Of a stretch of 64,000 nt of DNA, positions 28,675 through 31,964 are shown in pieces (position 1 is the first letter of the stretch; each line of letters opens with the position of its first letter). A program made the position numbers and the translations under genes. The stretch is from an uncultured Clostridium sp. (GTDB lineage: Bacteria > Bacillota > Clostridia > TANB77 > CAG-508): positions 14,553 to 78,552 of the forward strand of contig CANOVB010000001.1 of assembly GCA_947570695.1 (NCBI GenBank), in the 5' to 3' direction. The notes beneath the pieces are model-generated. The model was not told the origin of the DNA, made no database searches, and saw only the letters and a program-made list of their open reading frames with translations.

Positions 28675-29928
28675 ATGGCGTATGGAATAACATACATAAC
28701 TACACAAGGAGCAATTTTAGCAGCTAAAACTTTACAATCAAAAACCTTAAGTTTTTCAAGGTTTCAAATTGGAGATGGTTCGCTAGAAAGTGGAAGTGTA
28801 GAAGAAATAAAAGCCCTAACAGATTTAAATTCTCCTAAATTGGAATTTGATATTACAAAGATAGCAAGGGAAACAGATACACAAGTTACTGTTAGAGGAT
28901 TATTTAAAAATACTGATGCTGAAGAAGGATTCTGGTTAAGAGAATTAGGTTTATATGCTATTGATCCTGATACAAACGACGAAGTATTATTTGCATATAT
29001 AAATTATGGAGAAGAAGCAGAATATATAAACAATTCAATATCAGAGAAAAAAGAGCATTATTACGATATGATTATAACAGTTGATAATGCAGATAATGTA
29101 ACAATAACTGTTGATCCAAGTACAGTATATGTTACTGAAGAAGATTTGCTTGAAAAAGCACAAGAACTTACAGATGATTATGATACAAAATTTGCTAATT
29201 TAAAATCAATAGTTGTTGCACCAAATGCAGGAGCACACAATTCGATTTATAGAGGAAAAGATATAACAGACCTATTTTATAATGGAACTTTATCAAAACA
29301 AATAGCAGCAGGAACTTTTGATGATATATTTATAGGGGACTATATTATAGGAAATGTAAGCAAAAAGAAATATTTAGTTGCAGATATTAATTATAGATTA
29401 CATACAGGAGATACTGAATGCACAAGGCCACATATTTTAATGATTCCTGAACGAATATTGGGAACAGCAAAAATGAATGATACTAATATCACAACTGAAG
29501 GTTATGTTGGCAGTAAAATGTACAAAGAGTATTTAACACCATTTAAAACAGTAATACAAAATGACTTTGGAAATGCACATATATTAAATCATAAAGCATT
29601 ATTAACAAATACAGTTGCAGATGGTAAATCAACAGGATGGGCGTGGTATGATTCTACAATAGAACTTATGAATGAAAGTATGGTTTATGGACACAATGCA
29701 TTTGGATCTAGTGGATATGAAACTGGAAGTGATAAATCACAATTATCATTATTCAGATTAGATCCAAGTAAAATAATAGCGAGAAATGACAATAATGAGA
29801 GATATTGGTATTGGCTAAGAACTGTGGTTTCTTCTTCGTACTTCGCTCATGTGGGCAGCGGCGGCCATGCGGGCGACACCGGTGCTTCGTACGCTGGCGG
29901 CGTGCGTCCTGCTTTCCTAATCTACTAA
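28675..29928 (+). CDS. Tail fiber / receptor-binding protein; DGR target with C-terminal variable region (CLec-like, ...WYWLRTVVSSSYFAHVGSGGHAGDTGASYAGGVRPAFLIY)
   Basis: The last 94 nt of the ORF are a GC-rich repeat homologous to the TR at 30591. Confidence 0.7.
   Translation: MAYGITYITTQGAILAAKTLQSKTLSFSRFQIGDGSLESGSVEEIKALTDLNSPKLEFDITKIARETDTQVTVRGLFKNTDAEEGFWLRELGLYAIDPDTNDEVLFAYINYGEEAEYINNSISEKKEHYYDMIITVDNADNVTITVDPSTVYVTEEDLLEKAQELTDDYDTKFANLKSIVVAPNAGAHNSIYRGKDITDLFYNGTLSKQIAAGTFDDIFIGDYIIGNVSKKKYLVADINYRLHTGDTECTRPHILMIPERILGTAKMNDTNITTEGYVGSKMYKEYLTPFKTVIQNDFGNAHILNHKALLTNTVADGKSTGWAWYDSTIELMNESMVYGHNAFGSSGYETGSDKSQLSLFRLDPSKIIARNDNNERYWYWLRTVVSSSYFAHVGSGGHAGDTGASYAGGVRPAFLIY
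29823..29916 (+). repeat. DGR variable repeat (VR)
   Basis: 94 bp at 82% identity to TR. 16 of 17 mismatches fall at TR adenines. Confidence 0.85.
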
Positions 29929-29938
29929 TCAGGCATCT

Positions 29939-29959
29939 GACAGGGCTTTATGCCCTGTC
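29939..29959 (+). promoter_or_regulatory. Hairpin GACAGGGC-TTTAT-GCCCTGTC just downstream of VR/IMH (DGR retrohoming cis element candidate)
   Basis: 8-bp perfect stem, 23 nt after the VR end. Confidence 0.5.
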
Positions 29960-30059
29960 TTATAATATAGTGATTGTTCAATAGAGTTAAATTGATAGAA
30001 AAAAAGTGATACAATTTCTTGCGAATAATTAAATAAAGGAGAAATAGTATTATTAGGTT

Positions 30060-30575
30060 ATGTCGGATATAAAAAAGAATGAAAGAAAAGAGTCAAAACT
30101 ACAAACAATTCATAATGCATATATGATAAGGCAGGCTGTAACTAATTTAGCAGAAAACAATTTTTATATAACATTTTCTAAAATAGAAGATAGAATAAAT
30201 AACAGAATAAAAGAATTACCTGAAGAAGAACAAAAAAGAGTTAAAGACAATATGTATAAATTTTACCGTAGTCAAATAAATAGACTAACAGATAATGTTA
30301 TAGAACTTGCAACAGGAATAAGTAGGCATTTAAGAATTGCAAACACAATATTTCCAACATATATGTCTGAATTTGAAGAACGAAGATTGGAAATGGATAG
30401 AGCAATGGCCTGCTGTAATGCTCTTCAAGATGAATTGCAATATGCTGGAGAATGTTTATATGCAGATCTTAATAAGTATATGAATCTAGTATTAGAAATT
30501 CAAAAAGAATTTAATATGATAAAATCACTCCGACAAACTGACAATAGGTTCTTAAAAAATATAAAAAATAATTAG
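30060..30575 (+). CDS. avd: Accessory variability determinant (Avd)-like protein
   Basis: 171-aa helical basic protein between VR and TR, the canonical DGR position. Confidence 0.55.
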   Translation: MSDIKKNERKESKLQTIHNAYMIRQAVTNLAENNFYITFSKIEDRINNRIKELPEEEQKRVKDNMYKFYRSQINRLTDNVIELATGISRHLRIANTIFPTYMSEFEERRLEMDRAMACCNALQDELQYAGECLYADLNKYMNLVLEIQKEFNMIKSLRQTDNRFLKNIKNN

Positions 30576-30590
30576 TGGGTAATCTTTGAA

Positions 30591-30684
30591 TGTGGTTTCT
30601 TCTTCGAACTTCGCTAATGTGAACAACAACGGTAATGCGAGCAACAACAGTGCTTCGAACGCTAACGGCGTGCGTCCTGATTTC
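30591..30684 (+). repeat. DGR template repeat (TR), rich in in-frame AAC codons
   Basis: ...AACTTCGCTAATGTGAACAACAACGGTAATGCGAGCAACAACAGTGCTTCGAACGCTAACGGC... Confidence 0.85.
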
Positions 30685-30779
30685 ACAACCATTCAATAAT
30701 AAGTGGACTAAGTTTCTACAGGTATGGCAATGGGAAAAGGAAAGGAAAGATTATCCCTTCAATTTGTGAAAATTGATAA

Positions 30780-31964
30780 ATGCTAATCATTATGTATTTG
30801 GATAAGTCCAGTAATACTATTAAAGTGATTTTTATGAATATTTTTTATGATGCTAACAAAATATATGAAGCTGGAACAAAAGCAATTAATAGTGCATCTT
30901 TCAAATATCAAACACAACTTTTTGAAACAAATCACTTATTAGAAACAGCAATGCTTTTAAAGGATTTGAAAGAATGGAAGTATAAACCAACAAAAGGAAG
31001 AAAGTTTGTTATAAAAGAAAGAGGCAAAATAAGAAATATAACAACAAATGGAATGATTGACAAAACAATAAATCATTTGATTTGTGATGAAATTTTAAGT
31101 CCAGCTATTTCTCCTTATTTAATATATGATAATGGAGCAAGTCAAAAGAATAAAGGGGTAGGATTCCACAGAAAAAGATTAGAAGTACATTTACATCAAT
31201 ATTATAGAAAATATAAAAGTAATGATGGATATGTATTATTAATAGATTTTAGTGGATATTATGCAAGTATTCCTCATAACTTATGCTTAAAAAATATACA
31301 ATCATTTTTAAAGAATGTAGATCCAGGAGAAGCACAAATTACATTATGGATTTTAAAAAATATATTTGAAGTGTTTAATATAGATAATAAAAATGGAAGA
31401 GGAGTGGATATAGGCAGTCAGCCATCACAAAACATAGGTATTTCTTATCCAACAAAAATAGACAATTATATAAAAATTGTAAAAGGTATTAAATACTATG
31501 GAAGATATACAGATGATATGTATATAATTCATAGAGACAAAGACTTTTTGAAACAATTATTAAAAGAAATAAAAGAAATCGCAGATAATCTAGGATTAAT
31601 AATTAATCCTAAAAAAACACATCTATGTAAATTATCTCAACCATTTAGAGTTTTACAATTACAATATAAATTAACGGAAACAGGTCGAGTAGTTAGAAAA
31701 ATACATCCAAAGGCAATTACTAGAGAAAGAAGAAAACTAAAAGCCTATAAAAGATTACTTAATAATAATAGACTAAAATATGAAGAAATTGAGAACATAT
31801 TTAAAAGCTGGATGACAGCAAATTATAAAAATATGTCAATGAAGCAAATAGAAAATATGTCTCAATTATATTATGATTTATTTAAGGAGGTACCAAGATG
31901 GAAAAATCAAGGGTATGGAAAATTACGCTATCTGATGGAACACAAATTAAAAACCTTAGACTGA
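30780..31964 (+). CDS. DGR reverse transcriptase; true start probably the internal Met near 30837
   Basis: Motif 4 DIGSQPSQ (the DGR-specific SQ motif); motif 5 YGRYTDDMYII. Confidence 0.85.
   Translation: MLIIMYLDKSSNTIKVIFMNIFYDANKIYEAGTKAINSASFKYQTQLFETNHLLETAMLLKDLKEWKYKPTKGRKFVIKERGKIRNITTNGMIDKTINHLICDEILSPAISPYLIYDNGASQKNKGVGFHRKRLEVHLHQYYRKYKSNDGYVLLIDFSGYYASIPHNLCLKNIQSFLKNVDPGEAQITLWILKNIFEVFNIDNKNGRGVDIGSQPSQNIGISYPTKIDNYIKIVKGIKYYGRYTDDMYIIHRDKDFLKQLLKEIKEIADNLGLIINPKKTHLCKLSQPFRVLQLQYKLTETGRVVRKIHPKAITRERRKLKAYKRLLNNNRLKYEEIENIFKSWMTANYKNMSMKQIENMSQLYYDLFKEVPRWKNQGYGKLRYLMEHKLKTLD

Follow-up and report, generated by a model that had tools for sequence, protein, structure and literature searches.

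What is a second copy of the 94-nt 3′ end of a phage tail-fibre gene doing a few hundred nucleotides downstream, beside a gene for a reverse transcriptase (RT)? The question is raised by positions 28675-31964 of a 64,000-nt stretch of DNA from an uncultured Clostridium sp. (contig CANOVB010000001.1), the whole of which we call the window. An earlier reading of the letters alone, here called the original prediction, had proposed a diversity-generating retroelement (DGR), in which a template region (TR) is copied by the RT, with errors at adenines, into a variable region (VR) at the end of a target gene. We conclude with high confidence that the locus is a complete DGR that is active now or was until very recently, and that it belongs to a prophage of siphovirus type in a gut Clostridia bacterium with AT-rich DNA. 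It is a new instance of a well-known class, and its helper genes are all that sets it apart from the textbook case. Coordinates of all features are collected in Table 1.

VR and TR were realigned without gaps. They lie at an offset of 768 nt and differ at 17 of 94 positions, 16 of which are adenines in TR, as had been predicted. With 23 adenines among the 94 positions of TR, the hypergeometric probability that at least 16 of 17 mismatches fall on them is 8.3e-12. The sole mismatch at another base, C in VR against T in TR at 29865, is indeed synonymous (GGT to GGC). One of the 16 has to be withdrawn from the count of mutagenic events. At 29912 TR reads GATTTC and VR reads GCTTTC, and the same A/C difference recurs in 26 of 26 related loci from genomes and in nearly all of 71 from viral contigs; it is therefore a fixed marker that tells the two copies of the initiation of mutagenic homing (IMH) site apart, IMH* in TR and IMH in VR. 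The other 15 stand as mutagenesis, and 15 of 16 informative mismatches at adenines still gives P = 6.5e-11. The mutagenised positions span 29839-29897.

The repeat is unique in its surroundings. When the adenines of TR were masked to match any nucleotide, the pattern found VR and TR only in the 64-kb window, and it matched in 0 of 100 shuffles. VR is also the G+C-rich island in AT-rich DNA that had been described (63.8%, with 47.9% for TR and 27.7% for the whole window). The codons of TR had been miscounted: instead of nine in-frame AAC codons there are eight, and the 23 adenines are distributed over these, two AAT codons, one AGC, one AGT and a GAT. The 12 codons of the AAY (10) and AGY (2) types are all altered in VR, and none of them can mutate to a stop codon.

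The same bias is found among relatives. In 26 loci from genomes of uncultured Clostridia, 364 of 367 TR/VR mismatches are at TR adenines, and in 71 loci from viral contigs 995 of 1023, which gives 1359 of 1390 for the 97 related loci combined. A comparison of VR across related prophages had been suggested as a check, and the variation does fall almost wholly on A positions. The genome loci are from metagenome assemblies labelled uncultured Clostridium or Clostridia, several of them named as gut or rumen.

Evidence for activity comes also from two contigs of a single metagenome assembly (ENA ERZ14231476), L111 and L112, which overlap at VR and share 99.3% and 98.5% identity, respectively, with the window. 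L111 aligns to window positions 27642-29936 with 15 mismatches, all in VR. L112 aligns to 29785-33155; its TR is 100% identical and its VR differs at 20 positions. Between the two contigs VR differs at 18 positions, 18 of 18 being TR-adenine sites, and neither contig has the window's non-adenine change at 29865. There are thus three VR alleles, two of them from one sample, on backbones that show no other substitution in the 2.3-kb overlap. Since the alleles differ while the backbones do not, diversification must be much faster than background divergence, and since TR is invariant and the A/C marker fixed, transfer is one-way, from TR to VR. The assembly of ERZ14231476 broke exactly at VR (window 29785-29936), leaving contig ends with different VR alleles, and such a break may serve as a practical sign of active DGRs in assemblies. 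Three alleles on one backbone, together with the break at VR, point to ongoing mutagenic retrohoming rather than to a fossil.

What is diversified is the tip of the tail fibre. VR encodes the final 31 codons of the 417-aa target, and the variable residues are 389, 392, 394-396, 398, 400-403, 406 and 408. Among 120 target homologues the column entropy is about 3 bits at exactly those 12 residues and averages 0.37 bits elsewhere; within residues 1-380 no column exceeds 2.5 bits. The hypervariability of the target is limited to the 12 codons templated by the AAY and AGY codons of TR. In the nearest public homologue (P0390) 10 residues differ, all within the 12, and the remaining 407 are identical. 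The N-terminus of the target is a Pfam tail-collar fibre domain (PF12571, residues 6-155, E 3.8e-11) and the C-terminus a DUF6273 domain (PF19789, residues 349-416, E 1.8e-6), an architecture shared by most of 3698 homologues, and the protein matches the tail fiber family PHROG 7037 at E 2e-42. In gut phages, according to two papers, DUF6273 is the C-type-lectin-like domain in which DGR targets carry VR (PMC11792537, PMC10743442).

The RT matches Pfam RVT_1 (E 1.1e-13) and PHROG 1423 (E 2e-51). Both of the motifs noted originally, IGSQPSQ in motif 4 and the YTDD box, were found, and they are present in 118 and 120, respectively, of 121 RTs (120 close homologues and that of the window). Distant homologues carry related motifs, [LIV]GxxxSQ and YxDD being conserved across the family. 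In a search of PDB sequences the best match was the RT of Bordetella phage BPP-1, bRT (8ub7_A, E 3.6e-5), in an alignment that spans GIPIGSLTSQ/GVDIGSQPSQ and YMDD/YTDD; the only other match at E <=1e-3 was a Cas6-RT-Cas1 protein, and no group II intron or retron RT appeared at that threshold. Compared by BLASTP with bRT from the BPP-1 record, the protein is 22% identical over 314 aa (E 7e-12). Its motifs and its closest solved relative thus suggest that the RT belongs to the DGR clade, in agreement with the original prediction. The coding sequence probably starts at 30834 (MNIFYD...) rather than at 30780, because of the lengths of homologues and because a conserved RNA structure covers 30780-30833.

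Table 1. Features of the DGR and of the Msl-like gene downstream, in window coordinates (ORF, open reading frame; Msl, small MutS-like)
Feature	Position	Strand	Remarks
Target gene, 417-aa tail-fibre protein	28675-29928	+	PF12571 N-terminal, DUF6273 C-terminal with VR
VR	29823-29916	+	In-frame 3′ end of target ORF; 94-nt repeat of TR
Putative IMH	29899-29916	+	G+C-rich GGCGTGCGTCCTG then CTTTC; C at 29912 where TR has A
G+C-rich inverted repeat	29939-29959	+	8-bp stem, 5-nt loop, 22 nt downstream of VR
Accessory gene, 171-aa basic helical protein	30060-30575	+	Avd-like by predicted fold; no sequence family
TR	30591-30684	+	Between accessory gene and RT; non-coding
IMH* in TR	about 30667-30684	+	GGCGTGCGTCCTGATTTC
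Spacer (Sp) RNA, 149 nt	30685-30833	+	Conserved multi-helix structure between TR and RT start
DGR RT	30834-31964 (longest ORF from 30780)	+	RVT_1, PHROG 1423, IGSQPSQ, YTDD
Msl-like gene, 140 aa	34130-34552	-	MutS domain I only; PF01624, E 5e-15

How retrohoming might be directed is suggested by the sequences at and after the end of VR. The putative IMH includes a G+C-rich 13-mer and is identical in VR and TR apart from 29912, and the TR/VR homology stops after 29916. Conserved 3′ ends followed by divergence had been predicted as IMH and IMH*; both are seen, with the fixed A/C marker in addition, and by likeness to BPP-1 (PMC5758913) the stretch may function as an IMH. The inverted repeat that follows VR folds as a DNA hairpin at -9.6 kcal/mol (z -4.0), a stability reached by 0 of 200 shuffles. 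It is kept in place in 26 of 26 related loci, and its stem has changed on both sides in several of them (L006/L007, L017 and L021-L026), the variants being GACAGGGC/GCCCTGTC, CCTCAGGGC/GCCCTGAGG, GTCAGGGC/GCCCTGAC and GCTAGGG/CCCTAGC. There is no T tract on its 3′ side, as a terminator would have, and no counterpart of the hairpin after TR. BPP-1 needs an inverted repeat after VR for efficient homing (PMC5758913), and the hairpin matches, as a putative analogue, the cruciform or hairpin that promotes retrohoming there. It also coincides with the best promoter-like site of the region (29937-29966, + strand; CTGACA and TATAAT 18 nt apart, 11 of 12 matches), of which it forms the spacer. The TATAAT is missing in some relatives (L006, L021). 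As a promoter spacer the hairpin could have a further effect, on how the accessory-TR-RT unit is transcribed.

Between TR and the RT gene lies the spacer RNA. Its consensus fold over 20 diverse loci contains 33 pairs, and at 24 of these there are compensatory changes. In this fold 96.5% of cells pair, against 39-58% with slid partners, and its covariation score was reached in 0 of 500 shuffles. One predicted helix joins the 3′ end of TR (UUUC, 30681-30684) to GAAA in the spacer (30740-30743). In locus L087 it is changed on both sides, to UUCG/CGAA, which is the sole double compensatory event. Another pairing between TR and spacer, GGYGU/AYRCU, was predicted in a first alignment and was rejected in favour of UUUC/GAAA, since its combinations over 69 unique loci (C-G 12, U-G 11, U-A 10, C-A 3, G-G 3) are permissive and do not covary. 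In BPP-1 the cDNA is primed from spacer nucleotide A56, which pairs next to the base that is templated first, at the G+C-rich TR end (PMC6182149). A30743 (Sp59) would be, by this analogy, the candidate for priming here. Synthesis that started at or just 5′ of the fixed A30680 would explain why this adenine never reaches VR. An Rfam scan of 28000-33000 returned sub-threshold matches at chance level and no DGR RNA family.

The accessory protein is where this element is least like the textbook. It has no match in Pfam, NCBIfam, PHROG, PADLOC or PDB sequences, and neither single-sequence nor profile searches of PDB sequences related it meaningfully to a solved structure. As positive controls, the Avd of BPP-1 (E 7e-36) and the canonical Avd of a distant Clostridia DGR (L027) both match the bAvd family; a scan of viral contigs made to collect further Avd sequences found none. 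The protein is nevertheless a consistent part of the cassette. Its family comprises at least 362 clusters at 50% identity, and in 79 of 79 viral contigs with room downstream the gene stands between a target that has the same C-terminal domain and, about 260 nt further on, an RT homologue. The protein is basic, as Avd is, with an isoelectric point (pI) of 8.7 (8.9 +/- 0.7 in 120 close homologues). The CH1 accessory class of DGRs consists of acidic proteins of 160-169 aa with pI 4.7 +/- 0.2 (PMC5758913), and a CH1 identity is thus ruled out by charge. What is encoded beside TR and RT is a small basic protein predicted to form a four-helix bundle. We therefore call it Avd-like by predicted fold, charge and position, without placing it in the Avd sequence family. 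Of the earlier label 'avd-like', the predicted fold bears out one half; sequence, with no Avd-family match, does not bear out the other.

Several of these observations weigh against a complete and active DGR and have to be set beside the rest. The case for activity is a comparative one, made across genomes and across contigs. A C-type-lectin fold of the fibre tip is not confirmed, as the model of the C-terminal half of the target is poor (predicted local distance difference test score 57.7) and has no lectin match. Only 1 of 72 diverse members of the accessory family reached the Avd family PF05635, at E 0.015, with bAvd (PF22296) not listed, and hhalign of the family profile against single Avd sequences gave probabilities of 0.2% for the Avd of BPP-1 and 2.1% for that of L027. 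Four-helix bundles are a common fold, so that neither homology of the accessory protein to Avd nor its role is proven. The proposed priming site draws on one compensatory event. Finally, the best NCBIfam match of the RT is a model of group II intron RTs.

This last point gives some footing to the view that VR and TR are the copies of an ordinary duplication, set apart by point mutations, by recombination or by selection at the fibre tip, and that the RT comes from an unrelated system, be it a group II intron, a retron or a defence system of the DRT (defence-associated RT) or Abi (abortive infection) kind. NCBIfam and PADLOC do yield matches to group II intron, Drt3a, retron and UG-class RTs, but these are weak, generic and far under the cut-offs (62 bits against 300 for the group II intron model and, for example, 47 against 200 elsewhere), and a defence RT was rejected on the same grounds; nor does Rfam detect intron RNA domains or a retron msr/msd. 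Point mutation or selection would also have to produce an adenine specificity of P ~1e-11 in the window that is repeated in 1359 of 1390 mismatches across relatives, beside a non-coding TR, immediately upstream of the RT, that remains the same when VR changes. An RT without TR and VR, or unbiased differences, was not seen in any of the 97 loci. We consider a duplication of this kind scarcely credible. Somewhat easier to entertain, and still very improbable, is a decayed DGR whose TR/VR pattern records past activity and which no longer works. Activity in this prophage genome is read from comparing sequences, and the window-specific change at 29865, which is not at an adenine, can be taken as ordinary drift that has occurred after the latest retrohoming event. 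Against decay stand the ORFs, which are all intact, the RT motifs, which are kept, the identity of TR in the sister contig L112, and the three VR alleles on an otherwise substitution-free 2.3-kb backbone, two of them in one sample. The original prediction had named two outcomes that would count against a DGR, an RT that groups with those of group II introns or retrons and TR/VR differences that lose their adenine bias on careful realignment. Both were looked for and neither was found, the bias holding in the window as well as in the 97 related loci, and we retain a complete, active or very recently active DGR as the reading of this locus.

The complete DGR may be pictured as working in the following way. 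The accessory-TR-spacer-RT region would be transcribed, and the RT, with the help of the basic helical-bundle protein, would bind the structured spacer RNA. The spacer would then fold back and its GAAA would pair with the UUUC at the TR end, as covariation and the BPP-1 precedent suggest. Synthesis of cDNA would start in the G+C-rich IMH* and copy TR faithfully except opposite A, where any nucleotide could be inserted; the outcome of this step is visible in the alignments, and its enzymology is what we infer from them. The cDNA would replace VR, directed by the IMH and the downstream hairpin, and since TR lacks the hairpin, information would move from TR to VR only. In this way 12 of the 30 residues that end the DUF6273 receptor-binding tip would be recoded, with up to about 9e12 peptides possible. 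The variation itself is observed, and a changed specificity for host or receptor would be its likely phenotype. A speculative last step is that a phage protein consisting of MutS domain I may keep the host's mismatch repair away from the mismatched heteroduplex.

The candidate for this last step is the Msl-like gene, which lies 2.2 kb downstream of the RT on the opposite strand, directly after the endolysin gene and past the lysis genes. Its product aligns with residues 13-92 of Taq MutS. The Phe and Glu of the MutS GxFYE motif have mismatch-binding roles established from MutS structures; here the Phe is kept and the Glu is replaced by Asn. The gene falls within the region common to related phage contigs and is therefore phage-borne. 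Its position is the same in 43 close relatives; 3 close and 20 distant ones with the same DGR type lack it. Within a distant DGR (L028) the order is target, Msl, bAvd, TR and RT, with an Msl that is 30% identical to ours (E 2e-13), and L027 has a probable Msl remnant in the same in-cassette position, upstream of its canonical bAvd. Small MutS-like proteins have been described as an accessory class of DGRs that co-occurs with Avd (PMC5758913), and deletion of the host mutS is reported to raise VR mutagenesis 5-10-fold in Bacteroides (preprint, 10.1101/2024.11.15.621889). It is plausible that the Msl-like protein shields the heteroduplex from mismatch repair, and possible, from its inferred membership, that its gene is a second accessory factor of the DGR. 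It may equally be an unrelated lineage-specific phage gene. The absence of the gene from 3 close and 20 distant relatives and its place outside the cassette leave a link to the DGR unproven. A three-protein DGR, in which the RT works with an Avd-fold helper unrecognisable by sequence and with a MutS-domain-I decoy that acts in trans from outside the cassette, is accordingly an idea that we hold tentatively and think rather less probable than its negation. If it is true, the decoy would keep host mismatch repair from reverting the heavily mismatched heteroduplex of cDNA and VR.

Two further observations were made around these genes. Beside the Msl-like gene, two short ORFs (34488-34736, - strand) resemble one XRE-type helix-turn-helix protein (...TGIKFETL*KMCKILDCEPGDII...) split by an in-frame TAA, which could be a nonsense mutation in a phage regulator. 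The distant Clostridia DGR L027 (113-4814) has an 841-aa target with two VR-like segments (...YGVRPVVSLPK and ...GIGVRPVVSIPK), and its RT is split over two overlapping ORFs (3848-4198 and 4164-4814), suggesting a frameshift.

The prophage that carries the DGR has genes for terminase, portal, major head, major tail (PHROG 820) and tape measure proteins. No tail sheath gene was found among the ORFs scanned, and with the major tail and tape measure proteins this upholds the siphophage type assigned originally. The cassette is flanked by the tail fibre gene on one side and by an XkdX gene, a holin gene and an endolysin gene on the other. It had been placed between the fibre and xkdW/xkdX-like genes; XkdX does follow, but the xkdW-like label, given to a 110-aa ORF (31898-32230), was rejected for want of any family match. 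Similarity to related prophages and viral contigs ends at about 35320-35500, which is the probable right end of the prophage; the left end lies beyond the window. Host genes for a GT2 glycosyltransferase, PlsX, AddB and a topoisomerase are found past the right end. A megablast search of 25000-35000 against deposited phages gave no match. Elsewhere in the prophage, 12152-13342 (+ strand) encodes an N6/N4 DNA methyltransferase joined to a ParB N-terminal domain. Within the endolysin's C-terminal half (33650-34100, + strand) there are three tandem repeats of about 50 aa, with DNA repeat spacings of 162 and 153 nt, which are presumably cell-wall-binding modules. Between the endolysin gene and the holin-like ORFs (32892-32973, + strand), Rfam gives a sub-threshold match to the Termite-leu RNA motif of 30.5 bits against a gathering threshold of 51 (E 9e-4).

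DGRs are the best-understood natural form of targeted protein hypermutation, and those of phage tail fibres set host range in gut communities. To this the present instance adds no new principle, but it is unusually clean: TR does not vary, one backbone carries three VR alleles, and there are 97 relatives. It belongs to a widespread phage lineage of gut Clostridia that sits in public records with its DGR parts labelled hypothetical. For specialists there are three by-products: a large accessory family that sequence profiles do not recognise as Avd, a model of the spacer RNA supported by covariation and including a candidate priming adenosine, and an Msl gene outside the cassette that offers a way to probe whether Msl counteracts mismatch repair.

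Among known systems the element is best compared with that of BPP-1 (mtd-avd-TR-brt). Both have target with VR, accessory gene, TR and RT in this order on one strand, and the original prediction of a BPP-1-like layout agrees with the BPP-1 record. Both have VR at the 3′ end of a tail-fibre or receptor-binding gene, TR directly upstream of the RT, a G+C-rich IMH and IMH*, and an inverted repeat that follows VR and not TR. Spacer lengths are similar (144 nt in BPP-1, 149 nt here), with priming at A56 in BPP-1 and predicted at Sp59 here (PMC6182149). The RTs have IGSxxSQ and YxDD in common, although they are 22% identical only. TR is shorter (94 nt, against 134 nt in BPP-1), and the accessory protein, at 171 aa and with no bAvd match, contrasts with the 128-aa Avd of BPP-1, which matches bAvd. 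In place of Mtd the target is a fibre that begins with a tail-collar domain and ends in DUF6273, and the carrier, unlike BPP-1, is a siphovirus-like phage of an AT-rich Clostridia host. Msl accessory genes of DGRs mark architecture D of Wu et al. 2018 and occur also in Bacteroides pilus DGRs; here the gene is outside the cassette.

The target domain is shared with phages of gut Firmicutes. The DGR targets of the Faecalibacterium prophages Lelie, Roos, Pioen and Taranis and of the gut phages nd4/nd12 carry DUF6273, with VR at the C-terminus of this domain of a tail protein (PMC11792537, PMC10743442). Their RTs are recognisably homologous (28-32% identity) and fall far outside the window's own lineage, and tblastn of the 171-aa accessory protein found no match in the Faecalibacterium phage and nd4/nd12 genomes. 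The nearest deposited phage is Acutalibacter phage Fontainebleau (ON453893), which has a 39-kb genome with a siphovirus-like tail module. The 9.2 kb of its genome that cover the cassette and the lysis genes contain no Msl-like gene, and a literature search found no paper tying Acutalibacter prophages to a DGR. In its record the target and accessory protein are annotated as hypothetical, the RT as a reverse transcriptase, and a spurious ORF is called over the TR region. The cassette has the same order as in the window: target, accessory protein (44.7% identity), RT (47% identity), holin and amidase.

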